Origin: Candidatus Iainarchaeum sp.
GTDB lineage: Archaea; Iainarchaeota; Iainarchaeia; Iainarchaeales; 0-14-0-20-34-12
Length of the DNA stretch: 32,000 bases
Direction of reading: 5' to 3'
Assembly: GCA_030649345.1 (NCBI GenBank)
Contig: JAUSKK010000036.1
Location: forward strand, 1-32,000
Both the position numbers and the translations under genes were made by a program. Each line of letters begins with the position of its first letter. Position 1 is the first letter of the stretch. The notes beneath the pieces are model-generated. The model was not told the DNA's origin, searched no databases, and was given only the letters and a program-made list of their open reading frames with translations. Below are positions 3,209 through 29,774 of this stretch, one piece after another.

Positions 3209-3216
3209 TTGCTTGC

Positions 3217-3337: not shown

Positions 3338-3341
3338 CAGC

Positions 3342-3369
3342 CTTTTTTCCTTACGGAAAAAAGCCTGGG
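3342..3369 (+). terminator. Hairpin with T-run directly after the tRNA
   Basis: CTTTTTTCC-ttac-GGAAAAAAG, a 9-bp stem. An oligo-T tract is consistent with an archaeal termination signal. Confidence 0.4.
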
Positions 3370-3391
3370 GAAAAGTTAAGAACGTGATATT

Positions 3392-3757
3392 ATGGGTAAA
3401 ATACAATCTGTCAATAAAGAAACCATTGAATTGGTTAAAAAATTAAGACAAAAAACCAAAGAAAGTCAGCAAGGATTATGGAAAGACATAGCCAAACGTT
3501 TGGATCGAACGCGAAGATATATTGCTAAAGTCAATTTGGAAAAATTGGAAAAATTAGCTCAAAGCAATCCAGGAAAAATATTATTGGTCCCCGGAAAAGT
3601 CTTGGGCAAAGGAATATTGGTTCAAAAAGTAAAAATTGCAGCCATGGATTACAGTGCAAAAGCCAAAGCAGAAATTAACAAAAATGGAAAAGCAATCAGT
3701 TTAGAAGAATTAATGAACGGAAAAGATAAACCTTCCGATATTATAATTGTAAAATAA
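3392..3757 (+). CDS. rpl18e: 50S ribosomal protein L18e
   Basis: LWKDIAKRLDRTRR...GKILLVPGKVLGKG pattern, in the conserved position before L13-S9-RpoN. Confidence 0.85.
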   Translation: MGKIQSVNKETIELVKKLRQKTKESQQGLWKDIAKRLDRTRRYIAKVNLEKLEKLAQSNPGKILLVPGKVLGKGILVQKVKIAAMDYSAKAKAEINKNGKAISLEELMNGKDKPSDIIIVK

Positions 3758-3771
3758 GCGTTGTGAACTAT

Positions 3772-4257
3772 ATGGCAAACAAAGAAACAAAAAATAAAAA
3801 AATTGAAGTTAAAGAAACTGAAAAACTACAAAACAGAATTTTTATAGATGCTACCGGCCTTGTTTTAGGCCGAATGGCTAGCTTGACAGCACATAAAGCA
3901 TTGCGAAATATGACGATTGTAATTGTAAATGCAGAAAAAGCAGTCTTGAATGGAAATACCGAAAATTTATTTAAAAATTACAAAACAAAATTAGACTTAG
4001 AAGCTAAAGGAAATCCAGAAAAAGGACCTGAAATGAGTAAAATGCCGGATGCATTTGTCCGAAGAAGTATTCGCGGAATGTTACCTTACACGAGTACACG
4101 CGGTCAAGCTGCTTTTCGAAGAGTTCATGTATGCATTGGATTTCCCAAAAAATACCAAGGACAAAAAATGGAAGACTGGGCTCAAGCCAAAGCAAAGTAT
4201 TCTAGAAAATTTATTGAAATTGGAGAATTCTGCAAATTATTAGGAGCTAAATGGTGA
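3772..4257 (+). CDS. rpl13: 50S ribosomal protein L13
   Basis: IDATGLVLGRMASLTAHKAL...IVIVNAEKAVLNG is the L13 signature. The ORF opens at GTG 3763; ATG 3772 was chosen and the start remains uncertain. Confidence 0.85.
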   Translation: MANKETKNKKIEVKETEKLQNRIFIDATGLVLGRMASLTAHKALRNMTIVIVNAEKAVLNGNTENLFKNYKTKLDLEAKGNPEKGPEMSKMPDAFVRRSIRGMLPYTSTRGQAAFRRVHVCIGFPKKYQGQKMEDWAQAKAKYSRKFIEIGEFCKLLGAKW

Positions 4258-4712
4258 CGATAATGGTTGCTGAACGAAAAAAATTACGAAAACCCAGTCC
4301 AAAACAAAAAGAAAAAGGAATGACCGTAAAAGCCAAAAAAAAGACTGCACGAGCTAGAGCTTTGGTTAAAACAGGCAAAGGAAGAATTAGCATTAATCAA
4401 AAATCTTTAACCATCATAGAGCCCAGATATGTAAAAATGTTAATTGAAGAACCTTTAATTTTAGCACCCGAAGATTTAGTTTCAAGCATAGACATTCGAG
4501 TTAGTGTAATGGGCGGTGGATTTTCAGGACAAGCTGGAGCTGTACGCAGTGCCATTGCCAAAGCATTGATTTCCTATACAGGAGACGAAAAATTAAGAGA
4601 TCGATTTTTAGAATACGATCGAACATTATTGGTTGATGATGTGCGGCGCAAAGAAGCCAAAAAACCTTTAGGAAAAGGTGCACGAAAAAAGAAACAAAAA
4701 AGTAAACGATAA
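4251..4712 (+). CDS. rps9: 30S ribosomal protein S9 (S16e)
   Basis: GGGFSGQAGAVRSAIAKAL...DRTLLVDDVRRKEAKKPLGKGARKKKQKSKR is the S9 C-terminal signature. It overlaps the L13 stop. An alternative start is 4263. Confidence 0.9.
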   Translation: MVTIMVAERKKLRKPSPKQKEKGMTVKAKKKTARARALVKTGKGRISINQKSLTIIEPRYVKMLIEEPLILAPEDLVSSIDIRVSVMGGGFSGQAGAVRSAIAKALISYTGDEKLRDRFLEYDRTLLVDDVRRKEAKKPLGKGARKKKQKSKR

Positions 4713-4736
4713 ACAAAAAAAAGAAATGGTGAAAAA

Positions 4737-4931
4737 ATGATTATTCCAGTACGTTGTTTTTCTTGCGGAAAAGTAATTGGGGATTTATTTGAAAAATACC
4801 AAGAACAATTGAAAAACAATAAAAGCCCAGACAAAGTATTGGATGAGCTAGGCCTCAAACGATACTGCTGTCGAAGAATGATTGTAAGTCATTCCGATAT
4901 TATTGATGAATTTTTACGATACAATATTTAA
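4737..4931 (+). CDS. rpoN: DNA-directed RNA polymerase subunit N (Rpo10)
   Basis: [15 protein letters not shown]...[11 protein letters not shown] is the hallmark Rpb10/RpoN sequence. Confidence 0.9.
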
Positions 4932-4941
4932 TGGTGATAAA

Positions 4942-5589
4942 TTGAGCGAAACAGAAAACACATTGGTTGAAACAAAATTATACCTGCAAACCGGTTCCCA
5001 TATTGGAGCCAAATTTAAAACAGTTGGAATGAAAAAATTTATTTTCAAAAACAGACGAGATAAACTCAAAGTATTGGATGTTGCAACCATAGATGAACGC
5101 CTTCGAATTACAGCCAAATTTTTAGCCAGTTTTAATGCTCAAGAAATTGCAATTGTGTCCAGAAAACAATATGGTCAAAAACCAGTAGAAAAATTTGCTA
5201 AACTCACTGGAAGTCATGCGATCACAGGAAGATTTGTTCCTGGAACATTTACCAATCCAACAGCCAAAGAATTTGTTCAACCCAAAGTTTTAATGATCAC
5301 AGACCCAGATGCAGATGCTCAAGCCATTCAAGAAGCTCGCGGAATTCGTATTCCAATCATTGCATTATGCAGTACAGATAATGAAACCAAAAACTTGGAT
5401 TTAATCATTCCCATTAACAACAAAGGAAGACAAAGTTTGGCTTTAGCTTACTGGATTTTAGCTCAAGAATTCCTAAAACACAAAGGAATGCCAGCCATGA
5501 AAGAAAGCTTACAAGACTTCGAATTTCAGCTTAAAGAAGAGAAAAAAGACCTAAAACCAGCCCTACAACAAGCTACAATCCAAGAATAA
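4942..5589 (+). CDS. rps2: 30S ribosomal protein S2 (SAe), probable TTG start
   Basis: LQTGSHIGAKFKT...ITGRFVPGTFTNP...VLMITDPDADAQAIQEA are S2 motifs. The track ORF begins at 4903, inside rpoN. TTG 4942 is preceded by GGTGAT (4933-4938), as for S4 and ndk. Confidence 0.85.
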   Translation: MSETENTLVETKLYLQTGSHIGAKFKTVGMKKFIFKNRRDKLKVLDVATIDERLRITAKFLASFNAQEIAIVSRKQYGQKPVEKFAKLTGSHAITGRFVPGTFTNPTAKEFVQPKVLMITDPDADAQAIQEARGIRIPIIALCSTDNETKNLDLIIPINNKGRQSLALAYWILAQEFLKHKGMPAMKESLQDFEFQLKEEKKDLKPALQQATIQE

Positions 5590-5680
5590 GCAAAAAACCT
5601 AATTTTCTCACTGTAACCAGTAAATTTAAATACTTCGGCTTTCATAATTATAATATACTATTGTCTTTATCGGGTTAAAT

Positions 5681-6433
5681 ATGGCAGAATCTACTTTGTA
5701 TAGTTTATTGGAAAAACTTGGATTAACAGAATATGAATCCAAAACTTTGAACAGTTTATTTGAATTACGAGAAGCCAAGGCTCCTGAAATTAGCAGAAAT
5801 GCTCAAGTTCCTAAAACGCGGGTGTATGATGTCTTAGATGGTTTGGTTAAAAAAGGGCTGATTATTGAAATTCAAGGAAGACCTAAAAGATACCGAATTA
5901 TTGAAGCCAAAAAAACTTTGCAAAAATTAGTAGAAGAAAAGAAAAAAGAAATTGAAGGATTGCAATTTGAAATTGAAGCCATCCGAGAAGAAACTTTATT
6001 AGGTAAAAAAGGCCTGGACTTGGAAGGCGAAAAAGTAATGAAAGTCAAAGATCGAGAAGACTTTATTCGAATTTTAGCTCAAGAATTAGAAGAAGCCAAA
6101 GAAAGTATTTCTGGATTTACAGAATTAGATAAAGAACATGGAGCTTTAGCTAAAGCCATTGAAAAAATCAAAAACAACAATGTAAAAATAAAAATGATTC
6201 ACCATAAATCTCATGACAAAGTCAAAGAGTATGCCAAACATTCAGTGGAAAACAAACAATTCGATCACGGTTTAAATGCATTTATTGTAGATAATAAAAA
6301 AATAATTTTAGCTTTAAGCGACTTAAAACAAGAACGACCAGAATACTATTTTACAATCTGGAATCACAAACCTATGGCTAATTTGTTAACCAACCACTTT
6401 GATTCCTGCTGGCAAAAAGCCAAAAGTATTTAA
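5681..6433 (+). CDS. TrmB-family transcriptional regulator
   Basis: N-terminal wHTH LEKLGLTEYESKTLNSLFELREAKAPEISRNAQVPKTRVYDVLDGLVKKGLI, followed by a coiled coil and a C-terminal TrmB-like domain. Confidence 0.7.
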   Translation: MAESTLYSLLEKLGLTEYESKTLNSLFELREAKAPEISRNAQVPKTRVYDVLDGLVKKGLIIEIQGRPKRYRIIEAKKTLQKLVEEKKKEIEGLQFEIEAIREETLLGKKGLDLEGEKVMKVKDREDFIRILAQELEEAKESISGFTELDKEHGALAKAIEKIKNNNVKIKMIHHKSHDKVKEYAKHSVENKQFDHGLNAFIVDNKKIILALSDLKQERPEYYFTIWNHKPMANLLTNHFDSCWQKAKSI

Positions 6434-6514
6434 AGTTCAAATATCTAATTTTTTAAGCACTAACTGAATCTAATTTTCAAACAGATATATATATGAGAAA
6501 GCCATATCTTTTAT

Positions 6515-8557
6515 ATGAAATTTAAAATTGTATTTTTTGCAATTGCTCTAATTTTACTTTTAGGATGTACTCAGCCAAGTTCAGAAAATTCAACTCCCAG
6601 CGGACAAGCTGTTACTGGATTTGGAAATTCGTCCACAGTTCCAGTCATTAAAACCATTGTAATATACAATAACAATATAGGAGAAAGCTTACGCGATTTT
6701 ACCAGTCCTTTATGGCCAAAAACAGAAGACTGCTTAACACAAGCATGCATAGATGGAAGAACTACCAAACCAGACTTTAAATTTTTAGCAGGATTGCCTG
6801 CAAGCACGCCAGGATATGGTTATGCGAATGTACAATTCAATGGCTGGGCTAACAAAGGAGAAAGATTTACAACATTCACAGCAGGAGATGGAGTTAGTGC
6901 AACTTCTGGATCTGCTCAAGGAATTGTATACAAAGACGATGCAGGATTTGAACACAAAGTTCCGTTCTATTATACTTTGACTTCAATGTCTCAAGGCGGA
7001 AGTACATTCACTTTAGATGGTGCAACTTTCTATTACAAAGTAAGCACAGCTGATGTAAACTTTATTTTAACAGGAGATTTTGTATTAAACGGTTTTTCCG
7101 GGAATCTTACCAGAGATGGAAATCAAATTAGATTAAACACAGACAGAGGACCTTTGAATATCCCAAGTTATCCATACACAGTAAATGTAGATATTCGCAA
7201 AGTTAATTATACTTGTACAAGAATTGGAACTACATTTGCATTAAATTGCAATGCCGATGCAAACATGTCCATTACAACCAATGGAAGAACTTTCAGTCCA
7301 ACTCCAAGCTATGCAGACCTAATCACAGACGGAACCATTTACTTGGATGATGGAAACTTAATAAACAAAACAGGAATCTTTGGTGAAAGAAACAACATTA
7401 TTTGGATTACTTCAACAGTTGGAATGAATAATCAAATTTACGGTTATACACCTTACATTAATGAAACTCAAGGAAGAGTTTACCTGTTATTAGCACATCA
7501 AAATTTTATATCAACCGAAAACTCAAACTCTTACGGTTTTAGATTCTCAGGAACAGATACAGGAGAAGATGGAATCACTGATGTTGGGTTTTACTGGCTG
7601 GACAATATAGAATTACCTAAATTTGAAGGAAGTTCTACCAGTAACCGCCAAGATTACAACACAAATAGATCTCCACCCAGCGGAGATTCTTCCGATAATT
7701 ATAATTTCATTGCACAATTTGAAGTAGATACCGACAAAGACAGCATATACGATACAAAAATATACATAGACACAGCTACAGGAAAACCAATACAATTACC
7801 CAACACCAACTTAAGCACTTATACAGCAGATGTAAATTATAGAAAAGAAACTCAAAACTGGGGACTGTCTGCACGCACAGATATTCCGGTTTTACAAAAA
7901 GCATGGACTGATTACGGGAGCAAACTAGAAGTTACACCCAATCAATTCAAAGCCACAATTCCAGATAAGCGAAGAAAAATTGAATTCAAAGTATTGGGAA
8001 ATACAGGCACATCTGAAACTGCTTGGATTTACGATACCCAAAATTTAGATTCGCGCAATCAAAGAAGAGAATTGGTAAACAAAATTTTAAAGAAAGCACA
8101 ATTACCTTATTTAGTAGATCTAATAAAAACGCAGACTCATAATGGAAGTCCCTATAAAGAAAAAGTTACAGAAAGCATCAAACTAAACGGAGACGCATTA
8201 TTTGATTATGTTCGAACTATGATTGCAAATACAGTTACATCCATGCCTAGAATTAAAGATTTTTCTTACACAATCACATTCCAAAAAGGATTACCTATGG
8301 TCAATGATCCAACAACAGGAACACGCAGCGGAAGCTTTGTAGATGGAACTGATGATACCATCAGTGTTCCATTATTTGGCAAAAATTATACTTTAAAAGA
8401 AAGCAAACTCACACCAATACCAGAAATTACATTAATCGATGAATCTGGAAATACACTCAAATTAGTTCACGGACAAGCATTCCCTGCAAGCATGGATGTA
8501 AACGCAACCAATGATGCCAGCGATGACTATTGGAAAGTTGAACTCAATTTTAGATAA
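6515..8557 (+). CDS. Large secreted surface protein with lipobox-type signal peptide (S-layer/adhesin-like, function unknown)
   Basis: MKFKIVFFAIALILLLGC gives a signal peptide plus an LLGC lipobox. The 680-aa protein is rich in T/S/N/G, has many N-x-S/T sequons and has no further TM segment. Confidence 0.6.
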   Translation: MKFKIVFFAIALILLLGCTQPSSENSTPSGQAVTGFGNSSTVPVIKTIVIYNNNIGESLRDFTSPLWPKTEDCLTQACIDGRTTKPDFKFLAGLPASTPGYGYANVQFNGWANKGERFTTFTAGDGVSATSGSAQGIVYKDDAGFEHKVPFYYTLTSMSQGGSTFTLDGATFYYKVSTADVNFILTGDFVLNGFSGNLTRDGNQIRLNTDRGPLNIPSYPYTVNVDIRKVNYTCTRIGTTFALNCNADANMSITTNGRTFSPTPSYADLITDGTIYLDDGNLINKTGIFGERNNIIWITSTVGMNNQIYGYTPYINETQGRVYLLLAHQNFISTENSNSYGFRFSGTDTGEDGITDVGFYWLDNIELPKFEGSSTSNRQDYNTNRSPPSGDSSDNYNFIAQFEVDTDKDSIYDTKIYIDTATGKPIQLPNTNLSTYTADVNYRKETQNWGLSARTDIPVLQKAWTDYGSKLEVTPNQFKATIPDKRRKIEFKVLGNTGTSETAWIYDTQNLDSRNQRRELVNKILKKAQLPYLVDLIKTQTHNGSPYKEKVTESIKLNGDALFDYVRTMIANTVTSMPRIKDFSYTITFQKGLPMVNDPTTGTRSGSFVDGTDDTISVPLFGKNYTLKESKLTPIPEITLIDESGNTLKLVHGQAFPASMDVNATNDASDDYWKVELNFR

Positions 8558-12506: not shown

Positions 12507-14252
12507 ATGATTCGACAACCGATTATTGTAGTCATGGGCCATATTGACCATGGAAAAACCAAATTATTGGACAGAATTCGCGGAACCACTATAGCTGAAA
12601 GAGAAGCTGGAGCGATTACGCAACATATTGGTGCTACTGAATTACCTGAAAATAAAATTCAAGCTATTTCTGGAAACTTATTAAAGCAATTTGGATTTCA
12701 ATTAGAAATTCCAGGCTTATTGTTTATTGATACGCCTGGGCATGATGCATTCACGAATTTAAGAAGACGCGGTGGAAGCATTGCCGATTTATCTATTTTA
12801 GTTGTAGACTGCATGCAAGGAATTCAACCGCAAACTTTGGAAGCCATTCAAATTTTGAAAACATTCAAAGTACCGTTTGTGGTAGCGTTTAATAAAATTG
12901 ACAAATTACAAAACTGGCAAAGCAAGACAGGTTCGTTTTTAGAAAATGAAAAAATTCAAACTACCCATGCCCAAGAATTATTGGATAAAAAAATCTATGA
13001 ATTGGTTGGAAGATTGTTTGAATTAGGATTTGAAGCAGAACGCTTTGATCGAATTCAAGATTTCCGAAAACAAATAGCTATTGTTCCTTTGTCGGCTGTG
13101 GTGGGAGAAGGAATTCCTGAATTGTTAATGATGCTGTCTGGTTTAAGTCAAAAGTTTTTGAAAAACAAATTGGAAATCGGAGAACAAGAAAAATGCAAAG
13201 GCACTGTCTTGGAAGTCAAAGAAGACAAAGGCCTAGGAACAACATTGGATGTAATTTTATACGAAGGATCTTTACGCGTAGGAGATATCATTGCTGTTGG
13301 AACCAAACAAGGAGTCACTGAAACCAAAATTCGTACTTTACTCAAACCCAAACCATTATCGGAAATACGGGATGAAAAAAATGTATTCAAATCAGTAGAA
13401 TCTGTAAGCGCGGCTTGCGGAGTAAAAATTTCCGCTCCAAACTTAGAAAATGTTTTAGCGGGTTCTCCAGTATTGGATGCCAGTGTGGAATCACGGCAAC
13501 AAATATTGGATGAAATTAAATCCATTAAAATTTCAACCGAAGATATTGGCTTAGTCATCAAAGCAGATACTTTAGGATCCTTGGAAGCATTGATTGGATT
13601 AATGAAAAACAATCAAATTCCAGTACGATCCGCAGATGTAGGAATGGTTACCAAAAAAGATGTCATGGAAGCTTTGGCTTCAAAAGAAAAAGATGTTTAC
13701 CATGGCTGTATTGTTGCATTCAATGTAGAAATTGATAAAACTGCAGAAGACGAAGCCAAAAAAAGAGAGATTCAATTATTTTCAGGAAAAGTAGTGTACA
13801 CCATTATTGATGAATATTCAAATTGGGTAAAAACTCAAAAAGATCAAATGAAAAAAAACAAGTCTACTTTCTTGATAAGTCCAGCAAAAATTGAAGTATT
13901 GCGAGGCTTTGTTTTTAGAAGATCCGATCCAGCCGTGGTTGGCGTAAAAGTATTGATTGGAAAAATTAAATCCAAAACAACATTGATTAATGAAAATACA
14001 ATGGTACGATTGCAGGGATTGCAGGAAGAAAAAAAGGCTGTTGAATCTGCAGAAAAAGGAAAAGAACTGGCAGCATCCTTAGAGAATGCAGTCATTGGCC
14101 GAAACTTGTTTGAAGGAGATATATTGTATACGTATATTCCAGAAAGCCAATTTGAAGAAATTCCAAAGTATTTGGAGCTAAATTCTGAAGAATTGGCCTT
14201 ACTGGAGGAAATAAAAAATGTTCAAATCAAACATAAAGAGAACGGAGGATAA
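12507..14252 (+). CDS. infB: Translation initiation factor aIF5B (IF-2 homologue)
   Basis: GHIDHGKTKLLD, DTPGH and NKID GTPase motifs; about 580 aa. GTG 12498 is an alternative start. Confidence 0.9.
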   Translation: MIRQPIIVVMGHIDHGKTKLLDRIRGTTIAEREAGAITQHIGATELPENKIQAISGNLLKQFGFQLEIPGLLFIDTPGHDAFTNLRRRGGSIADLSILVVDCMQGIQPQTLEAIQILKTFKVPFVVAFNKIDKLQNWQSKTGSFLENEKIQTTHAQELLDKKIYELVGRLFELGFEAERFDRIQDFRKQIAIVPLSAVVGEGIPELLMMLSGLSQKFLKNKLEIGEQEKCKGTVLEVKEDKGLGTTLDVILYEGSLRVGDIIAVGTKQGVTETKIRTLLKPKPLSEIRDEKNVFKSVESVSAACGVKISAPNLENVLAGSPVLDASVESRQQILDEIKSIKISTEDIGLVIKADTLGSLEALIGLMKNNQIPVRSADVGMVTKKDVMEALASKEKDVYHGCIVAFNVEIDKTAEDEAKKREIQLFSGKVVYTIIDEYSNWVKTQKDQMKKNKSTFLISPAKIEVLRGFVFRRSDPAVVGVKVLIGKIKSKTTLINENTMVRLQGLQEEKKAVESAEKGKELAASLENAVIGRNLFEGDILYTYIPESQFEEIPKYLELNSEELALLEEIKNVQIKHKENGG

Positions 14253-14255
14253 ATA

Positions 14256-14316
14256 AATGGTTCCAAAATTCGAAAGAATTTTGAAACTTTAAAAAACACG
14301 GAGGTTTTTTAATGGC
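14256..14316 (+). repeat. 61-nt module, copy A (84% identical to 24835-24895): inverted repeat + AAACTTTAAAAAA + G-rich box + TTTTTTAATG
   Basis: A by-eye alignment gives 51/61 identities. Inverted repeat CAAAATTC (14264-14271) / GAATTTTG (14276-14283). AATGG occurs at both ends (14256 and 14311). Confidence 0.8.
14288..14296 (+). promoter_or_regulatory. TATA-like TTTAAAAAA exactly 24 nt upstream of the S6e ATG
   Basis: The same 9-mer lies at the same 24-nt distance from the ATG at 17303 (spt4) and 24867 (dnaJ). Promoter function is not proven, because GGAGG between the box and the ATG could instead be an SD. Confidence 0.4.
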
Positions 14317-14813: not shown

Positions 14814-16037
14814 ATGGCTGGAAAAAAAGTAAAAACAGACAGCAGTGCACAATGCGTGCAAGCTGAAGTGAATATTGGTTTAGCCGGCCATGTAGATGCA
14901 GGAAAAACAACTTTAACTCAAGCATTGAGTGGAAAATGGACAGACACGCATAGTGAAGAATTAAAGCGCGGAATTTCAATACGATTGGGATATGCGGATA
15001 TTGGAATTTATAAATGCAGTAAATGCAAAGAATTTAATTATTCGAATACCAGTGAATGCCCACAGTGTAAATCTCCAGGTATTTTAGACCGCAAAGTTAG
15101 TTTTGTGGATGCGCCAGGGCATGAAACATTAATGACTACTATGTTAAGTGGAGCTGCACTTATGCAAGGCGCTTTGTTGGTAATTGCCGCCAATGAAACT
15201 TGCCCGCAAGCACAAACCATTGAACACTTGAATGCATTAATTATCAGCGGCATCGAGCAAGTCATTGTAGTGCAAAGCAAAGTAGATTTGGTCACCGAAG
15301 AACGAGCATTGGAAAGTCATAAAGAAATTAAAGAATTTTTGAAAGACACCCAATACAAAAACGCGCCCATTGTACCCATTGCAGCACATTTCAAAATCAA
15401 TATTGATATATTATTGGAAGAAATTCAAAAAAGTATTTCTTCGCCGAAATTTGATTCTACAAAACCATTGAAAATGTTTTGTGCACGATCTTTTGATATT
15501 AATAAACCAGGAACGCTTCCTTCAGAATTACATGGAAGTGTTTTAGGCGGAACCATTATTCAAGGAACCATCAAAAAAGGAGACACCATTGAATTAACTC
15601 CTTGGCTGGATGGAAAACAAATTCAAACCAAAGTTATTGAAATTCGAACCAGCGATGGAGTCTTAGAAGAAGCCAAGCCAGGCGGTTTAATTGCAATAGA
15701 AACTTTATTGGATCCAAGTTTAGCACAAAACGATCAGCTTAAAGGCCAAAACATTGGAGCTGTAGGAATATTCTCTGAACCTACCACAGTCTTGAAAATA
15801 GAAATGCATTTTTTGGATCGAGTTGTTGTCAGCAGTGCTAAACGAGTAGTGCAAGGAGATGACTTGGTTTTAACAGTTGGAACTGCAACTTTGTTGGGAA
15901 TTGTTTCCAGCGTAAAAGGAAATACTGTAGTTGTTGCTTTGAAGAAACCAGCCGTAGCTGAAAAAGAACAAAAACTTGCAGTCAGCAAACGAGACCAAAT
16001 GAAATGGAGATTAATTGCTTACGCAATCAATAAATAA
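14814..16037 (+). CDS. eif2g: Translation initiation factor aIF2 gamma subunit
   Basis: GHVDAGKTTL, the zinc-ribbon insert CSKCKE...CPQCKS, DAPGH and SKVD; 407 aa. Confidence 0.9.
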   Translation: MAGKKVKTDSSAQCVQAEVNIGLAGHVDAGKTTLTQALSGKWTDTHSEELKRGISIRLGYADIGIYKCSKCKEFNYSNTSECPQCKSPGILDRKVSFVDAPGHETLMTTMLSGAALMQGALLVIAANETCPQAQTIEHLNALIISGIEQVIVVQSKVDLVTEERALESHKEIKEFLKDTQYKNAPIVPIAAHFKINIDILLEEIQKSISSPKFDSTKPLKMFCARSFDINKPGTLPSELHGSVLGGTIIQGTIKKGDTIELTPWLDGKQIQTKVIEIRTSDGVLEEAKPGGLIAIETLLDPSLAQNDQLKGQNIGAVGIFSEPTTVLKIEMHFLDRVVVSSAKRVVQGDDLVLTVGTATLLGIVSSVKGNTVVVALKKPAVAEKEQKLAVSKRDQMKWRLIAYAINK

Positions 16038-16130
16038 TCAAAACTATCGAGGCAAAGCCGAAGATAGTTTAAAGTACCGCCGGCTTTCCGGCGAAACGGA
16101 GATTAATTGCTTACGCAATCAATAAATAAT
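16001..16130 (+). repeat. 38-nt direct repeat of the aIF2-gamma 3' end (16001-16038 / 16093-16130, 37/38) bracketing a 54-nt two-hairpin insert
   Basis: GAAA[T/C]GGAGATTAATTGCTTACGCAATCAATAAATAAT occurs twice with a 92-nt period. Confidence 0.85.
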
Positions 16131-17262: not shown

Positions 17263-17330
17263 AATTTTAAATGAATTTAAAATTTAAAAAAAATTTTAAA
17301 ACTTTAAAAAACCGGGGGTTTTTTAAATGA
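17263..17330 (+). repeat. 10-nt direct repeat TTTTAAATGA (17265-17274 / 17321-17330) around a 46-nt AT-rich promoter-like insert at the spt4 start
   Basis: Exact repeat with a 56-nt period. Inverted repeat AATTTTAAA (17263-17271) / TTTAAAATT (17276-17284). AAACTTTAAAAAA at 17299-17311. Confidence 0.5.
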
Positions 17331-20264: not shown

Positions 20265-20924
20265 TTATGCAGAATCAAAAGAATAAAAAGCACTATCTTT
20301 ATTTGTAAATTCATCTAAATCTGAAATTAATTCTGCACTATTTTTGTAATTACTGGCATTAATCAACAAGTGAAAGCCATGCTTTTTTTCTTTCATTTTG
20401 AAAAGGTTTTCCAAGTAAACTATATTGTCCTTTTTATCAGAAGATACTGCAACCTTAAAGGAACAATTTAGACTTGTAGCTAGAAAAGAATATTCAATTG
20501 CACGAATAATAAAATGTGGCCGCATATATGTACCGTTTTCAACACTGGCTTGAATGAATTCATTCGGATTTTTTAAAAGCAAACAATAAGTGTGATTATT
20601 CATTTTAGCAATCAACACAATATTAATCCGTTTTAGTTCAGTGCTTATACCTTGCGGGTTTGCAAAAACAAGTTTGTCTAAATATACTGTAATAATGGGT
20701 GCTATTTGCTGAATGGATTTTCGAGTTACAAAAAGATAAAAAAACACGAATGAAAATAATACCAACAAAGGCAAAACTGCAAGAAACGGTACTACAGTAG
20801 AAGTCTTAGCACTTGGAATAAAAGCCAAGGCAATGTAAAAAACTATTGCAATAAAACTAAAGACAGTAAAAACATCGCGTACAAAAAAACTTGGATAATA
20901 GATCTTGAGATCTTGTGAGTGCAT
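20265..20924 (-). CDS. Membrane protein: two N-terminal TM helices plus a ~140-aa soluble domain, function unknown
   Basis: Hydrophobic segments VFTVFSFIAIVFYIALAFI and VVPFLAVLPLLVLFSFVFFYLFV. It is the last gene of the minus-strand operon. Confidence 0.6.
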   Translation of the reverse strand: MHSQDLKIYYPSFFVRDVFTVFSFIAIVFYIALAFIPSAKTSTVVPFLAVLPLLVLFSFVFFYLFVTRKSIQQIAPIITVYLDKLVFANPQGISTELKRINIVLIAKMNNHTYCLLLKNPNEFIQASVENGTYMRPHFIIRAIEYSFLATSLNCSFKVAVSSDKKDNIVYLENLFKMKEKKHGFHLLINASNYKNSAELISDLDEFTNKDSAFYSFDSA

Positions 20925-20944
20925 ACAGATCTAAATACTTAGAA

Positions 20945-21472
20945 TTATTTTTCTGAACGAAAGCTAGCAGTATATTGATAGAGTTTTAAAAAAACTGCCA
21001 AAATTACAATAAAGATTCCAACATTCAAAGCATACGAGTAGGGCTGAACGATTCCATAATTTTCCCAGTTAATAAAAGTTAATTCTGGATCCAAATAAGC
21101 TGCAATCGCGTAAGCTATAAAAAAAGCAAACACAATTTCAATTATAATCAAAGCCAAGACTCGGGGATCGTTTTTTGCATTTTTTAATTTTTGCTGCACA
21201 GCATCTTTCAATGTTTTGCCGGCCAAAACTTGGATATCATAGGCTTGGGTTTGTTTTTTTTTCAAAACAAAATACACGGCAATAAATGTGAACAAAGAAA
21301 GGCCGGCTAAAAATAAATATTCTGGCGAAAAATTAAATGAAACTGTCCGCTCAAAGACATTGATTTGAATAATTTGAATTAAAGAATAAATAAATGAAAC
21401 CAGCAAAGCAAACTCCATGAGCACAATAGCAATAACTTTTTTGTTTGCTTGAATGGTTTCAATTGCTTGCAT
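20945..21472 (-). CDS. Four-TM membrane protein, function unknown
   Basis: Four hydrophobic segments with a central amphipathic, charged loop. It lies 32 nt downstream of the HTH gene. Confidence 0.6.
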   Translation of the reverse strand: MQAIETIQANKKVIAIVLMEFALLVSFIYSLIQIIQINVFERTVSFNFSPEYLFLAGLSLFTFIAVYFVLKKKQTQAYDIQVLAGKTLKDAVQQKLKNAKNDPRVLALIIIEIVFAFFIAYAIAAYLDPELTFINWENYGIVQPYSYALNVGIFIVILAVFLKLYQYTASFRSEK

Positions 21473-22636: not shown

Positions 22637-24523
22637 ATGAGTAAAGTAATTGGAATCGATTTAGGAACCAGTAATTCAGCAGCTGCAGTCTTGGAAGCAG
22701 GAAAACCAAAAATTATTCCAAGCGCAGAAGGAACTTCTTTATACGGAAAAGCATTTCCAAGTGTTGTGGCATTCACAAAAGATGACCAAGTTTTGGTGGG
22801 TGAACCGGCACGCAGACAAGCTGTCAGTAATCCAGATAAAACAATTATGGCAGCCAAGCGAAAAATGGGAACTACTTTCAAATACAAGATTGGCTCGAAA
22901 GAATTTACGCCTCAACAAATTAGTGCATTTATTTTACAGAAAATTAAAAAAGACGCAGAAGAATTTTTAGGCGAAAAAGTAGAAAAAGCTGTAATCACTG
23001 TGCCAGCTTATTTTGATGACAATCAAAGACAAGCAACCAAAGATGCAGGAGAAATTGCAGGCTTGGAAGTTATTCGAATTATTAATGAACCCACAGCTGC
23101 TGCTTTAGCCTATGGCTTAGATAAAAGCAATCAAGACATGAAAATTTTAGTATTCGATTTCGGCGGCGGAACATTGGATGTAACTGTAATGGAATTAGGC
23201 CATGGAGTCTTTGAAGTCAAATCAACCAGCGGAGACACTCAATTGGGCGGCACAGACATGGATAAAATTTTAGTGGATTATTTGGTGGCAGAATTCAAAA
23301 AAGAACAAGCTGTTGATTTAAGCAAAGACAGTGTAGCTATGCAGAGATTACGAGAAGCTGCAGAAAAAGCCAAAATTGAATTAAGTACAGTTTTGGATAC
23401 ACAAATTAATTTACCGTACATTACAGCTACTCCGGAAGGCCCGAAACATTTGGCCCTGAGTTTAACAAGATCAAAATTAGAACAATTGGTCGAGCCCTTA
23501 ATTCATAGATGCGAAAAACCAGTCCAGCAAGCTTTGGCGGATGCCAAAGTATCCCCGGGAGATGTAGCTAAAATTATTTTAGTCGGCGGACCAACCCGAA
23601 TGCCTGCAGTACAAAAGTTTGTGGAAAAAATTACAGGAGCCAAACCAGAACGAGGCATTGACCCAATGGAATGTGTAGCTATGGGTGCAGCCATTCAAGC
23701 CGGAGTTTTAGCTGGAGAAGTTAAAGATGTTTTATTATTGGACGTAACACCCCTAAGTTTAGGAATTGAAACCTTGGGTGGAGTGTTTACTCATTTAATT
23801 GAACGCAATACAACCATTCCAACCAAAAAAACTCAAATATTTAGCACAGCTGCAGACAACCAAAATGCAGTAGATATTCATATCCTGCAAGGAGAAAGAC
23901 CTATGGCAGTAGACAACAAAAGTTTGGGCAGATTTATTTTAGATGGAATTCCTCCAGCACCTCGCGGTGTTCCACAAGTTGAAGTCATGTACGATATTGA
24001 TGCCAACGGAATTTTGGATGTTAAAGCCAAAGATTTAGGCACAGGCAAAGAAAAAAGCATCAAAATTGTTTCTCCGCAAAAATTGGATAAAGAAGAAATT
24101 GAGCGAATGAAGCAGGAAGCGGAAAAGTTTGCAGAAGCGGATCAAAAGAAAAAAGAAGAGATTGAAACTTTGAATATGGCAGACAACACAGTTTATGGGA
24201 CTGAAAAGGTGTTGAAAGAATTGAGCGGGAAAATTTCTGCAGAACAAGAAACAGAAATTAAAGAAAAAAATGAAACATTAAGAAAATTAGTAAACGAGCC
24301 AACCAAAGATGTTGCAAAAATTAAAACAGCTTTAGATGACTTGAATGCATTCGTGCAAAAAATCAGTACAGAAATGTATCAAAAAGCCGGAGAACAATAC
24401 CAGCAACAAAATCAAGGAGAACAAGGAAATCCCGGACAAGAAGAAGAACACAAGCACAAAAAGAAAAACAAAGACGGAAAAGTGGTTGACGCGGAGTTTA
24501 AGGAAGACGAAAGCAAACAATAG
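22637..24523 (+). CDS. dnaK: Chaperone DnaK (Hsp70)
   Basis: [23 protein letters not shown] and [10 protein letters not shown]; 628 aa. Confidence 0.95.
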
Positions 24524-24659
24524 TGCTGAACGCAGTGAAGCACTACGACCTACCAACCGCGCGATTAAAACGCAGCGTTTTAATGCGCATTTAAACAAAA
24601 GTTTAAATCGCGTCCGCGGTTGACGCGGAGTTTAAGGAAGACGAGAGCAAACAATAGTG
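24484..24659 (+). repeat. 42-nt direct repeat of the dnaK 3' end (24484-24525 / 24618-24659, 41/42) bracketing a 92-nt GC-rich multi-hairpin insert
   Basis: GGTTGACGCGGAGTTTAAGGAAGACGA[A/G]AGCAAACAATAGTG occurs twice with a 134-nt period. Confidence 0.9.
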
Positions 24660-24817: not shown

Positions 24818-24834
24818 TTAATCAGGTAGAAATC

Positions 24835-24895
24835 AATGGTTCCAAAATTCTTTTGAATTTTGAAACTTTAAAAAATAAAGGAATTTTTTAATGGC
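24835..24895 (+). repeat. 61-nt module, copy B (see 14256-14316) directly upstream of and including the dnaJ start
   Basis: Inverted repeat CAAAATTC (24843-24850) / GAATTTTG (24855-24862). TTTAAAAAA at 24867-24875. AATGG at 24835 and 24890. Confidence 0.8.
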
Positions 24896-26015
24896 TGAAA
24901 AAGATTATTATGAAGTTTTAGGAGTTTCAAGGAATGCATCGCATGAAGAAATTAAAGCAGCATTCAAGAAACTCGCAAAACAATTTCATCCAGACTTAAA
25001 CAAAGACCATAAAGCTGAAGACAAATTTAAAGAAATTAATCAAGCGTATTCTGTTTTAGGCAATCCTGAAAAAAAACAAAAATACGATCAGTATGGTTCA
25101 AGTGCATTTGAAGGACAAGGATTCCAAGGCTTTCAAGGAGCAGACTTTGATTTCGGAGACTTTGGATTCGAAGACTTATTTGGAAGCATATTTGGACAAC
25201 AATTTAGAAACACAAATTCTAGAAGAACTCCAGCAGGCCCCAGAAAGGGAGCGGATTTACAATACAGTTTAGAAATTGAATTCGAAGAAGCAGTCAATGG
25301 AGTCACCAAAGACATTGAATTCGAACACATGGAACAATGTACAACCTGTAAAGGCATCGGCGGATCTGGAACAACCAAATGTTCTTCATGCAATGGAAAA
25401 GGAGTGGTTACCAGACAACAAAGAACAGCTTTTGGAATATTTCAGAGCAGTACAACTTGTTCCAAGTGCCGCGGCCAAGGAGAATCAGTAAAAGATTCAT
25501 GCAAGCAATGCAATGGAACAGGTCATATTGAAAAACTAAAAAATGTAGAAGTCAAAATTCCAGCAGGAATTGACAATGGTTATACTTTACGATTGCAAGG
25601 ATTGGGAAATGCTGGAACTCAAGGCGGAAACTCCGGAGACTTATATGTTTCTATTTTTGTAAAAGCCAGCAAAATATTCAAACGCGACCAAAACGATGTA
25701 TTCATTGAATTACCCATTAGTTTTACTGAAGCTGCTCTAGGATGCGAAATTGAAGTTCCAACATTAAAAGGAACTGCAGAATTAAAGATACCGCAAGGAA
25801 CACAAACTGGAACAATTTTCCGAATGAAAGGACAAGGCATGAAACATTTAAACAAAAACGAACACGGAGACGAATACGTAAAAGTCAATATTGTGGTTCC
25901 AGAAAAACTAAGCACCAAACAGAAAAAAAGATTGGAAGAATTCAAAAAAGAAGAAGAAAATGTACGCATTCAAAAAGGATTCTTTCACAAAATAAAGGAT
26001 AAGTTTGTAAGCTAA
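24891..26015 (+). CDS. dnaJ: Co-chaperone DnaJ (type I)
   Basis: [15 protein letters not shown], a G/F region and four CxxCxGxG zinc motifs. Confidence 0.95.
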
Positions 26016-26080
26016 TTTTTAGCAAATCTTACTTGTAAGAAAAGCTTATTAACCTGTTTTGTTCTAATTAGTAGATTGAT

Positions 26081-26335
26081 ATGAAAGTAATTGTGGAAAC
26101 CACCAAGATGTCCACCAAAGGACAAGTTATTATTCCGAAAGATGCACGCACATTTATGGAACTTGAAAAAAACACGGTTTTTTCAGTTTTAGCTTTGGAT
26201 CAAAACACGCTTATTTTAAAAAAATTAGATAAAGAAAAATTGCTAAGAGAGTTTGAAAATATTCGAGCACGCGTCAAGCATAAACTCTCTGAAAAGGGAG
26301 TGGATGCTATTGTTCACAAAGCACGCAAAGGTTAG
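26081..26335 (+). CDS. AbrB/SpoVT-family antitoxin
   Basis: MSTKGQVIIPKDAR is the swapped-hairpin AbrB motif. The protein is small and lies directly upstream of the PIN gene, overlapping it. Confidence 0.75.
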   Translation: MKVIVETTKMSTKGQVIIPKDARTFMELEKNTVFSVLALDQNTLILKKLDKEKLLREFENIRARVKHKLSEKGVDAIVHKARKG

Positions 26336-26750
26336 AGTTGTTCTAGACACCAACATTGTTGTTTCGGCTTTGATCGAAAAACGCGGTTATCCAGCGGAAA
26401 TTTTTAGAAAACTTATTTCTGAAGAAATTGAATGTTTTACCAGCCAAGAAATACTGGACGAAATTGAAGATGTATTTAAAAGAACAGAAATTGTCAGCCG
26501 AACTTTACAGGCCGATCGGGAATCCATATTAACAAATTTCAAGATTTATGCGCAATGGATTTCAATCAAAACCAAAGTAAAAACAGTACTGGAAGATTCA
26601 GATGATGATAAATTCATTGAATGCGCTTTGGACGCCAAAGCAGATTTCATTGTCAGCGGAGATCGACATTTGCTTAAACTAAAGGAATTCAAAGGAATAA
26701 AAATTATTAAAGCTAAGGAATTTATAGACACAATAAGCGGCTGTTTGTAA
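26304..26750 (+). CDS. PIN-domain toxin (VapC-like)
   Basis: VVLDTNIVVSAL...DDDKFIECALDAKADFIVSGDRHLL. The track ORF starts at 26253; ATG 26304 is preceded by GGGAG and gives a 32-nt overlap with the antitoxin. Confidence 0.75.
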   Translation: MLLFTKHAKVRVVLDTNIVVSALIEKRGYPAEIFRKLISEEIECFTSQEILDEIEDVFKRTEIVSRTLQADRESILTNFKIYAQWISIKTKVKTVLEDSDDDKFIECALDAKADFIVSGDRHLLKLKEFKGIKIIKAKEFIDTISGCL

Positions 26751-26798
26751 GCTAATTTCGCTGGTTTTTTAATTCCTTTACTTTAATTCTTATTGTAT

Positions 26799-29246
26799 AT
26801 GGCTGAACTAGATTTACATTCATTGGAAACCAAATGGCAAAAATACTGGGACACAGAACAAATTCATAAATATCATTCAGATTCCAAAAAACCTTTGTAC
26901 AGCATTGATACTCCGCCGCCTACAGTTTCTGGAAAAATGCATTTAGGGCATGCATTGGGTTATAGTCAAGCGGATGTAATTGCACGTTATAAAAAAATGC
27001 AAGGCCATGAATTATTTTATCCTTTTGGATTTGACGACAATGGACTGGCCACAGAACGCTTTGTAGAAAAAGAAACTGGAAAACGTGCCGTGGATATGAC
27101 GCGAGCAGAATTTGTAAAATTATGTTTAGACACAACCAAACAAGCAGAAACTGAATTGGAAAAAGATTTCCGCGCTCTCGGATTAGCCATTGATTGGAAT
27201 TTAGTATATAGAACCATTGACTCAAAAGCAGTTAAAATTGCCCAAGAAAGTTTCCTAGACTTATTTGAACAAAAAAGAGTTTATCAAAGCCAAACACCCC
27301 ACATGTATTGCACGCAATGCAGAACAGCCATAGCTCAAGCAGAATTAGAAGACACTGAAAAAGAATCTTTCTTTAATGATTTAGAATTTGAATTAGAAAA
27401 CAAACAAAAAATAATGATCAGTACTACACGGCCTGAATTATTACCAGCCTGTGTTGCAATTTTTATTCACCCAGAAGATAAAAGACACAAAACATTGATT
27501 GGACAAACCGCGATTGTTCCATTGTTTGAACAAAAAGTACAAATTTTAGCCGACAAAAGGGTAGATCCAGAAAAAGGTTCAGGCATTGTCATGTGTTGTA
27601 CTTTCGGAGACCAAAAAGACATGGAATGGCAAAAAGCATACCAGTTACCTATTAAAGTTGCGATTGGATTGAATGGAAAAATGCAAGATTGGGTGCCAGA
27701 ATATGCCGGATTAAATATTAAGCAAGCGCGTGAAAAAATAATTCAAACACTTAAAGAAAAAGAAATTTTGAAAACACAAAAAAAAATTATGCATATTGTG
27801 AATGTACATGAACGCTGTAAAACAGATGTAGAATTTTTAGTAACACCCCAATGGTTTATTCAGTATTTGGATCTAAAAAAACAATTCCTGGAAGCCAGCA
27901 AATCTTTAGATTGGAATCCAACACACATGCAGGTACGTTTAGAAAACTGGGTTCAAGGACTTCAATGGGATTGGTGCATTTCCAGACAAAGATACTTTGG
28001 AGTGCCGTTTCCTTTATGGTATTGCACTCAATGCAAATATCCAAAAATAGCTGAACACACACAATTGCCAGTAGATCCATTGCAAGACCAACCTATCGGA
28101 GTTTGTGAAAAATGCAGTGGAAAAGAATTTACACCAGAAAAAGATGTGTTAGACACTTGGTTTACCAGCAGTTTAACTCCGCAAATTAATTCAAGTTGGA
28201 CAGTGAATGAAAAACATTTCGAAAAATTATTTCCCATGAGCTTACGACCTCAAGGACACGACATTATCACTTTATGGGCCTTCAACACATTGGTGAAATC
28301 TTTCTTTCACCACAAACAAGTGCCTTGGCAGACAGTCATGATTAATGGATTTGCTTTAGATGCAAATGGGAAAAAAATGAGTAAAAGTATTGGAAATGTA
28401 ATTGCACCCCAGCAAATTATTGTTCAATACAGTGCAGATTGTTTAAGATACTGGACTTGTTCTGTAGGCTTAGGCGAAGACGTGCCTTATAAAGAAAAAG
28501 AACTGGTTTCTGGAAAAAGATTGTTATTCAAATTATGGAATGCCGGAAAACTAATTGAAGGATTAACGGAAAACTTTGATTACGGAAATGCACCCAAGCA
28601 TACTTTGAATTTACAAATAGAAGATAAATGGATTTTGAGTAAATTGAATAACTTAATTGAAAAATGCACTGAACAAATGAATGCATTTAATTTTGCAAGA
28701 ACGCTAGCAGAAACACGTGATTTCTTTTGGCTGGAATTTTGTGATTATTATTTGGAAGAAATTAAAGGAAGGATTTACGAACCCAAAACAGTTGAAGACC
28801 AACAAGCTGCACAATATACTGCAGTGCATGTGTTTGAGCAAATTTTGAAATTATTGGCTCCTATTTTACCGCACATCACTGAAGAATTGTATATGGAAAG
28901 CAAAATTATTGGATTCAAAAAAGAAAAAAGCATTCATGAAAGCAATTGGCCGAAAATCGAAAAAGAAAAAATCGATATGCATGCAGAGCAAACTGGAAAA
29001 ACCATGAATCAAGTTATTGCAGGAATCCGAAAATACAAAAGCTTGAAAGGATTGCCCATGAATTCAGAAGTCAAAAAAGTCACAATATACTTACAGAACA
29101 ATGCGTTCAAAGAACAAATCTTGGAAAGCCAAACTTGCATTCAAAGAACCTGCAAAGTTTTAACTCTAGATGTACGATTGGCTGATCCAGTGAATGTAGT
29201 GCAGGTACATGAAGTTAACGAAGATATAAAAATAGAAATAGAATAA
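26799..29246 (+). CDS. valS: Valyl-tRNA synthetase
   Basis: TPPPTVSGKMHLGHA (HIGH), TTRPELLPACVAIFIHPED and KMSKS. The ~815-aa size fits a short archaeal ValRS. Confidence 0.85.
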   Translation: MAELDLHSLETKWQKYWDTEQIHKYHSDSKKPLYSIDTPPPTVSGKMHLGHALGYSQADVIARYKKMQGHELFYPFGFDDNGLATERFVEKETGKRAVDMTRAEFVKLCLDTTKQAETELEKDFRALGLAIDWNLVYRTIDSKAVKIAQESFLDLFEQKRVYQSQTPHMYCTQCRTAIAQAELEDTEKESFFNDLEFELENKQKIMISTTRPELLPACVAIFIHPEDKRHKTLIGQTAIVPLFEQKVQILADKRVDPEKGSGIVMCCTFGDQKDMEWQKAYQLPIKVAIGLNGKMQDWVPEYAGLNIKQAREKIIQTLKEKEILKTQKKIMHIVNVHERCKTDVEFLVTPQWFIQYLDLKKQFLEASKSLDWNPTHMQVRLENWVQGLQWDWCISRQRYFGVPFPLWYCTQCKYPKIAEHTQLPVDPLQDQPIGVCEKCSGKEFTPEKDVLDTWFTSSLTPQINSSWTVNEKHFEKLFPMSLRPQGHDIITLWAFNTLVKSFFHHKQVPWQTVMINGFALDANGKKMSKSIGNVIAPQQIIVQYSADCLRYWTCSVGLGEDVPYKEKELVSGKRLLFKLWNAGKLIEGLTENFDYGNAPKHTLNLQIEDKWILSKLNNLIEKCTEQMNAFNFARTLAETRDFFWLEFCDYYLEEIKGRIYEPKTVEDQQAAQYTAVHVFEQILKLLAPILPHITEELYMESKIIGFKKEKSIHESNWPKIEKEKIDMHAEQTGKTMNQVIAGIRKYKSLKGLPMNSEVKKVTIYLQNNAFKEQILESQTCIQRTCKVLTLDVRLADPVNVVQVHEVNEDIKIEIE

Positions 29247-29291: not shown

Positions 29292-29774
29292 ATGGGATTG
29301 AAAAAAATTGGTTTACTTTTAGTTGCAGTAGTAGCTATTGTTTATTTTGTAAATCCATCCATGATTGGATCAAATAATCCATTACAGGAATTGGATCAAA
29401 AATACTTAAAGGATTCTGTATTACCGACTACAGAAAATATACAAGCCTATGAGCAAGCTTTGAAAAACTTTTCTGGATCCACAGAACAAGTGCAAGTGCG
29501 ATTGACTGGTGTTGAATTGGTTAAAGCTTTGCAATTGGTTAATCAAAAAACAGTATTAATTGATTTGCAAAGTTCAGAATGTAGAACTCAAGTTGTAAAT
29601 GCACAGCAAGCTATAGATACAGCTATTGGAAAAGCCGTGAACTTAAGTTCAGAAACTTCGCGTTTGTTGGCTAAAGAAACAAATGAATTTGTTTCAGAAC
29701 TAAAAGCTACAACTTTAGGAATTCAAGGCAGATTGGAAACCCAAAAACAAAGCTTGGAAAATTACTGCGAATAA
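29292..29774 (+). CDS. N-terminally membrane-anchored hypothetical protein
   Basis: One TM segment (IGLLLVAVVAIVYFV) followed by a helical, Q/E-rich domain. Confidence 0.55.
   Translation: MGLKKIGLLLVAVVAIVYFVNPSMIGSNNPLQELDQKYLKDSVLPTTENIQAYEQALKNFSGSTEQVQVRLTGVELVKALQLVNQKTVLIDLQSSECRTQVVNAQQAIDTAIGKAVNLSSETSRLLAKETNEFVSELKATTLGIQGRLETQKQSLENYCE

Follow-up and report, generated by a model that had tools for sequence, protein, structure and literature searches.

Toxin-antitoxin (TA) modules and other small defence or addiction modules reach sites within core genomes without a visible vehicle, and how they do so is an old question. The question is raised by a two-gene TA cassette situated between dnaJ and valS in a stretch of 32,000 nucleotides (nt) from the archaeon Candidatus Iainarchaeum sp. 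(GenBank assembly GCA_030649345.1, contig JAUSKK010000036.1, positions 1 to 32,000 of the forward strand), referred to here as the window. The cassette is bracketed by an exact 16-nt direct repeat, one copy of which carries the 3′ end of dnaJ. As the original prediction stated, the cassette encodes no integrase or transposase, and none was found across the whole 32-kb window. The analyses described below indicate that the cassette probably reached its place between dnaJ and valS through an insertion event in which 16 bp of target sequence were duplicated. The locus is a new example, marked by TA cargo, an archaeal host and a short duplication, of a known, but little-studied and mechanistically unexplained, kind of insertion.

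A 16-nt direct repeat brackets the TA pair

The locus comprises the following elements.

24891-26015, plus strand: dnaJ, the target gene (Pfam DnaJ, DnaJ_CXXCXGXG and DnaJ_C), with its last three codons and stop inside repeat copy 1
26003-26018, plus strand: direct repeat copy 1 (GTTTGTAAGCTAATTT), which contains the dnaJ stop
26019-26080, plus strand: left end of the insert and upstream region of the TA operon, a palindrome followed by an A/T-rich stretch as read from the sequence
26081-26335, plus strand: antitoxin gene, 84 aa, AbrB/MazE (SpoVT-AbrB) type, assigned by TIGR01439 and by homology to the partners of related PIN proteins
26304-26750, plus strand: PIN toxin gene, 148 aa, PIN_3 and TIGR00305, with its last two codons and stop inside repeat copy 2
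26743-26758, plus strand: direct repeat copy 2, which contains the PIN stop (26748-26750) and is followed by CGCTGGTTTTTTAATTCC
26799-29246, plus strand: valS, the intact downstream neighbor (Pfam tRNA-synt_1 and Anticodon_1)

The 16-mer GTTTGTAAGCTAATTT occurs in two exact copies in the same orientation, and all of the coordinates predicted for them are right. Identity extends over exactly 16 nt, with the adjoining bases differing on either side (A/T before and T/C after). The dnaJ gene finishes in copy 1 as AAG TTT GTA AGC TAA, the stop at 26013-26015 being the second TAA of the copy, and the gene is left intact. The PIN open reading frame (ORF) runs 5 nt into copy 2 in a frame other than that of dnaJ and finishes as GGC TGT TTG TAA with the first TAA of this copy as its stop. 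Both stops lie where they had been placed originally. The DnaJ C-terminus encoded by copy 1 matches the KGFF.K.K.KF end motif of homologous proteins in the same place (KGFFQRVKKKFKA, NGFFKKFKKVFK, KSFFERVKKRFK and similar); judged from this match, copy 1 is the native dnaJ end. The sequence CGCTGGTTTTTTAATTCC that follows copy 2 is probably the original dnaJ terminator and valS promoter region, in which the T-run would have a role.

The 724 nt between the copies (26019-26742) had been described as containing only the TA genes, which proved accurate with the sole addition of the 62-nt promoter or upstream region of the pair. This region includes a perfect 6-2-6 palindrome, TCTTAC-TT-GTAAGA, at 26027-26040 as a candidate operator for the antitoxin, and downstream of it an A/T-rich stretch, AAAAGCTTATTAA, as a candidate TATA region. 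The toxin ORF overlaps the upstream, co-oriented antitoxin ORF by 32 nt. The toxin matches Pfam PIN_3 with a value of 2.7e-25 and TIGR00305 with 75 bits, above the cut-off, agrees in length with its homologs, and possesses acidic residues Asp-15, Glu-53, Asp-101 and Asp-120 that are invariant in the alignment. Toxins of the PIN family are usually regarded as RNases. The antitoxin is a borderline domain call, matching the AbrB-type model TIGR01439 with E = 7e-6 and 25.6 bits, below the 28.3-bit cut-off, and PF04014 with E = 0.05. However, homologous antitoxins beside PIN_3 toxins pass PF04014 at 30-42 bits, and the antitoxin is homologous to the genes upstream of the closest PIN homologs. On these matches the pair is a predicted type II TA system that is VapBC-like, with a PIN toxin and an AbrB-type antitoxin.

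The number of exact 16-mer matches expected between two 430-nt flanks with the base composition of the window is 2e-4, and the expectation for the observed placement is about 8e-6. In 171 control flank comparisons, using the flanks of 57 cassettes of the same family, the best ungapped score was 13 compared to 16 at dnaJ. Two matches to the 16-mer appeared in 0/100 dinucleotide shuffles. A third copy was absent from the window with up to two mismatches allowed, and 1.4 Mb of DNA fetched from other loci lacks the 16-mer. None of the remaining gene ends in the window is similar to it, and a shared stop-context motif was rejected as its source as there is no such motif among these gene ends. Direct repeats that are exact over ≥16 nt and lie within 3 kb number seven in the window compared to 0.34 in shuffles, three of the seven being A-rich, low-complexity coding sequence. 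As repeats of this type occur, the shuffles understate the repeat background and the case therefore rests on length and position together. The junctions also were recovered in a second, independent assembly: Logan contigs of run SRR13727527 (L001 and L002) read through both the dnaJ-to-TA and the TA-to-valS junctions with the same flanks. Exact-protein look-ups with DnaJ, the antitoxin and ValS produced matches only in Logan contigs of one run, with identical structure, and those with the PIN toxin and DnaK produced no match.

Bracketing repeats recur in the PIN_3 family

The PIN_3 loci were fetched from metagenome and viral contigs, using an 8-sequence alignment for the metagenome search, and bracketing direct repeats were counted at scores ≥15. 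Among 81 usable loci, 15 possessed a bracketing repeat compared to 6/191 shifted intervals at the same loci and 15/1235 intervals at unrelated loci, an excess with Fisher p values of 5e-5 and 1e-11, respectively. Subtraction of two tandem-paralog cases left 13/81 loci (~16%, or about one in six; p = 4e-4 and 1e-9). Repeat lengths were 16, 20, 20, 21, 23, 23, 25, 31, 32, 49, 53, 95, 128 and >134 nt, and the sequences are unrelated. Six exact 11-mers that flank other cassettes exceed the controls weakly. Six cassettes were measured, namely that at dnaJ and five others: the inserts span 719-998 nt, consist of a promoter and two genes, and have a G+C content like that of their flanks, and neither terminal inverted repeats nor a shared end motif was found in the six. 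The antitoxin type varies across the cassettes and includes AbrB, RHH and Phd-like proteins.

Where the neighboring genes are readable, what has been duplicated is usually the boundary of a gene. At five loci this is the 3′ end of a neighboring gene, these loci being the four listed first below and the phage locus L173 described in the next section.

L114: the final ~20 nt of a convergent aIF5B gene together with its stop (KETWGV-stop versus KGTWGV-stop), with 719 nt between the copies, in a ribosomal-protein context
L145: the last 49 nt of the upstream gene, including its TGA
L118: 128 nt, 58 nt of which come from a PIG-L gene's 3′ end
L119: at least 134 nt within the 3′ part of the upstream gene
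L101: an SCP2 gene's 5′ end, present three times with progressive divergence, the copies separating two cassettes

The L101 region (3017-5253), in which the copies of the SCP2 end stand at 100/83/70%, contains an AbrB/PIN_3 pair as one cassette and a 181-aa ORF with a PF01850 PIN gene as the other. The arrangement looks like serial insertions into one junction. Loci L092 and L116, the two cases subtracted above, were rejected as target duplications because they are tandem paralogous or amplified TA units. In L116 (1-1239) a 955-nt TA unit is repeated at 98% identity, either as a tandem copy or through circular assembly, and in L092 (3624-4509) two paralogous TA pairs stand next to each other. 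Both arrangements agree with amplification of TA cassettes through repeats.

Empty sites in phage relatives of the cassette

Empty-site comparisons of the kind that the original prediction called for were made on relatives of the cassette and not of the host. In one phage case (L175, identical to L177) a Phd-like/PIN cassette is located between the portal gene and the next gene, and the duplicated segment is the overlap between the stop of the former and the start of the latter. Copy 1 (GGAGTGCGCCGAATGCAGGTGAC in L177) retains the portal end ...ECAECR-stop by means of a synonymous CGC to AGG change, and copy 2 (GGAGTGCGCCGAATGCCGCTGAC) retains the start of the next gene. Eleven related phages, with portal proteins that are 55-77% identical, have no TA pair and no more than a single copy of the repeat, and in these the portal gene overlaps the next gene. 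In the closest relative, L178, the portal stop overlaps the next start (ATGCCGCTGA), and this single copy is identical to copy 2. A supposed convergent gene beside the L175 portal gene was rejected, being the antisense frame of a co-oriented downstream gene.

In the second case (L173, identical to L191) an AbrB/PIN cassette is enclosed by the duplicated 3′ end of a phage gene, stop included (...FIDEVWGSVKP-stop), in two copies of 95 nt that are 92% identical. The cassette is absent from ~78 related phages, in which the 95-nt gene end is present in at most one copy. The L191 region (5173-6818) is a variable slot with two TA cassettes side by side, AbrB/PIN and Phd/ParE-like, and members of this widespread phage family have 0.6-2.5 kb of other DNA at the same slot.

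Two further gene-end duplications in the window

The original prediction held that the TA cassette shares its placement at a stop codon with small structured inserts. This is borne out by two duplications of 38 and 42 nt elsewhere in the window.

16001-16130, plus strand: aIF2-gamma end duplication, the last 38 nt including the stop and 1 nt past it, in copies at 16001-16038 and 16093-16130
24484-24659, plus strand: dnaK end duplication, the last 42 nt including the stop and 2 nt past it, in copies at 24484-24525 and 24618-24659

Each pair of copies has one mismatch, which is synonymous in dnaK and changes Trp to Arg in copy 2 of aIF2-gamma. The aIF2-gamma insert (16039-16092) is 54 nt long with 50% GC and two hairpins (fold z = -4.7), and the dnaK insert (24526-24617) is 92 nt long with 47% GC and is structured; both are much richer in G+C than the genome. 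No credible Rfam match was obtained for either insert, with nothing for the window at gathering thresholds, and no copy of the 54-nt hairpin insert was found in viral contigs. The k = 31 Logan assembly breaks at both duplications, with L189 ending at 16035 inside copy 1 and L001 starting exactly at 24618. Only one comparable close repeat was found in 66 kb of the nearest DPANN genomes. A single nucleotide separates dnaK from dnaJ in the closest genome, L026, compared to 367 nt in the window, and the spacer in the window therefore looks wholly added. Copy 2 of the aIF2-gamma end terminates directly before an ATG upstream of the PIN_9 gene. In L114, from another small archaeal genome, a 34-nt GC-rich hairpin-forming sequence, AGCCGAACGAAGTTCGGCTGGGCCCAGCCGAAAT, occurs at 775-808 and 2378-2411, 1.6 kb apart, and recalls the GC-rich hairpins inserted in the window.

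Genomic context and other features of the window

The window covers core genes of a DPANN archaeon, which encode ribosomal proteins, RNA polymerase subunits, aIF5B, aIF2-gamma, GluRS, ValRS, Sua5/Kae1/Bud32 and grpE-dnaK-dnaJ. Homolog searches recovered DnaJ proteins with at most 52-54% identity and PIN proteins with at most 52-55% identity, and the 90% cluster of the PIN toxin has one member. The best DnaJ matches are to Woesearchaeota and Nanoarchaeota mixed with Clostridia at the same 49-54% identity, a mixture that fits the known bacterial origin of archaeal Hsp70 systems. The closest genome, L026, is a Nanoarchaeota single-cell genome (DnaK 72% and ValS 53% identical) in which the order is dnaK-dnaJ, two unrelated minus-strand genes (NMNAT-like and RFC-like), and valS. 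Thus, the gene neighborhood is conserved and the content of the dnaJ-valS interval is not, which makes this genome uninformative on an empty site. A search of genome contigs with ValS also recovered Woesearchaeota at 43-48% identity in which dnaJ is not nearby.

A promoter-like element of 66 nt occurs at 14251-14316, 17265-17330 and 24830-24895, the sites being before the S6e gene, after an Rpo7-like gene and before dnaJ, respectively, with 68-83% identity. It consists of a palindrome, GTTCCAAAATTC-N4-GAATTTTGAAAC, then TTTAAAAAA, and then TTTTTTAATGGC including the start codon, and may represent either an operator/promoter used in common or a promoter module that has been copied. A tRNA gene at 3217-3337 (Rfam tRNA, 42 bits, above the cut-off), which was missed by ARAGORN and by the gathering-threshold run on the whole window, has a ~40-nt insertion in the anticodon region that is probably an archaeal intron. 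Four ORFs of 680, 219, 175 and 160 aa had no Pfam match at 1e-5 (intervals 6515-8557, 20265-21472 and 29292-29774), and the rest of the core region can be annotated fully.

Insertion with target duplication as the favored explanation

The reading of the TA pair as an insertion unit that was proposed originally is supported. In the favored reading, the segment 26019-26742 is a horizontally acquired type II TA (addiction) cassette with its own promoter/operator region. Incoming DNA would have been inserted into the ~45-nt dnaJ-valS junction through two joins that did not coincide, with the result that 16 bp, consisting of the three final codons and the stop of dnaJ plus the next 3 nt, would have been duplicated. 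The duplication itself may have come from filling in a staggered break, from joining to two chromosome copies (sisters or those of a polyploid cell), or from a switch of template as replication proceeded. Copy 1 would keep dnaJ complete and copy 2 would keep the sequence upstream of valS, and the insertion would be viable in a compact genome because the duplication preserves both neighbors. Conceivably only those products survive in which a gene boundary is duplicated and not deleted, and the cassette then may have been kept through post-segregational killing, its loss being toxic. The involvement of a dedicated transposase or of a single integrase is disfavored by the continuous range of repeat lengths in the family, the unrelated sequences of the repeats, the absence of end motifs, and the presence of the same footprint at non-coding inserts.

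Several observations weigh against this reading. At 16 nt the repeat is short. It does not reach the 30-bp operational threshold applied by Furuta 2010, and its size is one that att cores or the duplications made by some transposases also have. That the PIN stop falls inside the repeat calls for either coincidence or microhomology shared by the dnaJ end and the native end of PIN. The cassette has a GC content of 0.34 compared to 0.36 in its flanks, and composition thus gives no sign of a foreign origin. With the nearest PIN homologs at the distance given above and a one-member cluster, recent spread or multiple copies are not in evidence. The collections searched contain no conspecific or near relative of the host, judging by DnaJ, and the empty sites seen are those of the two phage-borne cassettes. 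Finally, the joining mechanism is a matter of deduction throughout.

Alternative explanations

The cassette might be the remnant of a site-specific integrative element in the dnaJ 3′ end, which is unlikely. The 16-mer then would be an att core (attL/attR), and either all but the TA pair has been deleted or the cassette is a cis-mobilizable element that depends on an integrase gene located elsewhere. Gene 3′ ends are common targets of integrases, which leave direct repeats of 15-60 nt, as is well established (class b, Fig. 1, PMC2853133). A length of 16 nt suits an att core, TA modules are frequent cargo of integrated elements, and one site appears to have been used repeatedly by the two cassettes in L101. 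However, no integrase is present in the 32-kb window or beside the L114 cassette, although one may reside elsewhere in the genome, and the target is the end of dnaJ. The six measured cassettes all are minimal, and near-intact repeats are unexpected after long decay. Repeat lengths extend continuously from 16 to >134 nt with unrelated sequences and targets, none of which is a tRNA gene. Moreover, the duplications around the 54- and 92-nt inserts would demand three different integrases within 11 kb.

Alternatively, a TA circle that already carried the 16-mer may have integrated at dnaJ by a single Campbell-type crossover, an improbable course of events in which the PIN stop would be native to the circle. 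The circle could come from repeat-mediated deletion at the same site in a sibling cell. A circle or tandem junction would read ...AAGCGGCT-16mer-TTAGCAAATC and the empty allele ...GGATAA-GTTTGTAAGCTAATTT-CGCTGG. This explanation accounts for the termination of the PIN gene inside the repeat, some archaea recombine with very short homology, and tandem or circular TA units exist in the family, as in L116 and L092. Amplification also is known, and release has been proposed, for restriction-modification (RM) units flanked by repeats (PMC2853133). Nevertheless, the first insertion at the site is left unexplained, 16 nt is very short for homologous integration, and the exact-protein look-ups revealed no circular junction or second copy. 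Furthermore, the toxin end is not generally in the repeat, which begins 0-101 nt past the toxin stop in other cassettes.

A repeat that matches by chance, with a TA pair that has long resided between dnaJ and valS, is very improbable. Other exact 16-17-mers recur within 3 kb in the window by composition alone, the cassette and its flanks are equal in GC content, and the interval is variable in the closest genome. Yet the expectations calculated above for the flanks and the placement are minute, the score tops all 171 controls, the repeat is not of low complexity, and the same architecture is seen in other family members and at two further places in the window. An assembly artefact, in which strain variants were joined chimerically at a shared word, is scarcely credible, for while this is a metagenome contig and Logan contigs break at the 38- and 42-nt repeats, the 16-nt repeat is shorter than the assembler k-mers, L001 and L002 read straight through both copies, and breaks at the longer repeats are what real repeats of ≥31 nt produce.

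Other candidates were rejected. A DNA transposon or miniature inverted-repeat transposable element is at odds with the lack of terminal inverted repeats in the six cassettes and with duplications that are not of fixed length. An integron gene cassette is inconsistent with regions around the copies that fold no better than shuffles (z = -0.9 and +0.4) and with the lack of an IntI-like gene in the window. Casposon or Cas1 integration is contradicted by the absence of inverted ends, the absence of a Cas1 match among the ORFs scanned in the window, and three duplications of 16, 38 and 42 nt in one genome. Readings as a diversity-generating retroelement or as CRISPR-like were set aside because the scanned ORFs include no reverse transcriptase or Cas1 match and the mismatch pattern is wrong for the former.

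Comparison with known systems and significance

Integrase-less DNA between direct repeats at the 3′ end of a protein-coding gene is known from the cis-mobilizable elements at the fda 3′ end in Streptococcus thermophilus, among other att-flanked remnants of integrative elements. Their repeats do not vary from copy to copy, being the defined att sites of a known integrase family, whereas the repeats of the TA family differ at each locus in sequence and length, and no integrase lies in the window or beside the L114 cassette. The pdif (Xer) modules of Acinetobacter plasmids and the TA cassettes of chromosomal integrons move without a recombinase of their own. They do so at specific sites, either inverted 28-bp XerC/D sites or attC sites beside an integron integrase; the 16-mer, in contrast, is host coding sequence in direct orientation, and the regions around its copies show no significant folding. 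Casposons produce target duplications of about 14-15 bp. Those of Mycoplasma IS1630 are 19-26 bp (cited in PMC2853133). Although duplications of 14-26 bp overlap the 16 nt observed here, both elements have terminal inverted repeats together with a transposase or Cas1, neither of which is a property of the dnaJ cassette, and repeat lengths in the family are not fixed. Phage morons resemble L175/L177 and L173/L191 in being TA units between conserved phage genes at a variable slot, whereas the dnaJ locus is chromosomal. To our knowledge, descriptions of morons do not stress junction duplication.

Insertions that leave target duplications of long and variable extent have been described for RM systems (Gene 259:99, 2000; Furuta, Abe & Kobayashi, 2010, PMC2853133). 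In this class the unit has no recombinase or inverted ends, and the repeat is host sequence that is single-copy at the empty site (PMC2853133). The mechanism is unexplained: double-strand breakage has been hypothesized as a common factor, and repeat-mediated amplification has been shown (PMC2853133, PMC3874152). The dnaJ cassette likewise is a small addictive unit between direct repeats without recombinase or inverted ends. The TA family shares with the RM class the variable repeat length, the frequent spanning of the start or stop of a neighbor that remains intact, and tandem amplification. The dnaJ cassette differs from the class in its PIN/AbrB cargo and its DPANN host, and breakage by a restriction enzyme is not obviously applicable. 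Its repeat is shorter than the 30-bp working threshold of the class, although lengths are variable, with 38 and 42 nt in the same window and >134 nt in the family. The same footprint at non-coding hairpin inserts in the window also is unlike the RM class. Restriction cleavage as the common cause is disfavored because a TA pair shows an RM-type signature, and that the toxin belongs to a family usually regarded as RNases weakens the idea further.

In Microcystis aeruginosa PCC 7806, a ParE/ParD-like module lies downstream of the orthocaspase gene MaOC1, between identical 152-bp direct repeats (Klemencic et al., 2021, PMC7935541). It similarly is a chromosomal two-gene TA module just past a host stop codon with two direct repeats, but it differs in TA family, in its bacterial host, and in the inverted repeats internal to the 152-bp sequences. 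In the passages considered here the repeats are not interpreted as a target duplication and no empty site is shown. No systematic description of target duplication for TA cassettes in general was found in the literature.

A more general proposition, which is possible but doubtful, is that one recombinase-independent pathway inserts DNA at gene boundaries with variable target duplication and is common to RM units, to TA cassettes in archaeal, bacterial and phage genomes, and even to the small non-coding hairpins inserted in this DPANN genome. At its boldest, the proposition would have the PIN nuclease and the DNA-binding antitoxin help to make or use the break, and the TA pair would be a minimal self-mobilizing element.

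The frequency of the footprint across the family and the gene-boundary rule are more interesting results than the single locus. The target-duplication footprint is common among PIN_3 cassettes, formerly was documented systematically for RM systems only, and now is evident also in archaea and phages with a preference for gene ends. It provides a marker of recent acquisition that can be read from sequence alone and opens the route of insertion to testing. Where a genome is very compact, duplication at the junction may be the sole way in which an insertion leaves both neighbors functional. Overall, the footprint points to a poorly understood route of entry for selfish genes that possess no enzyme of their own.

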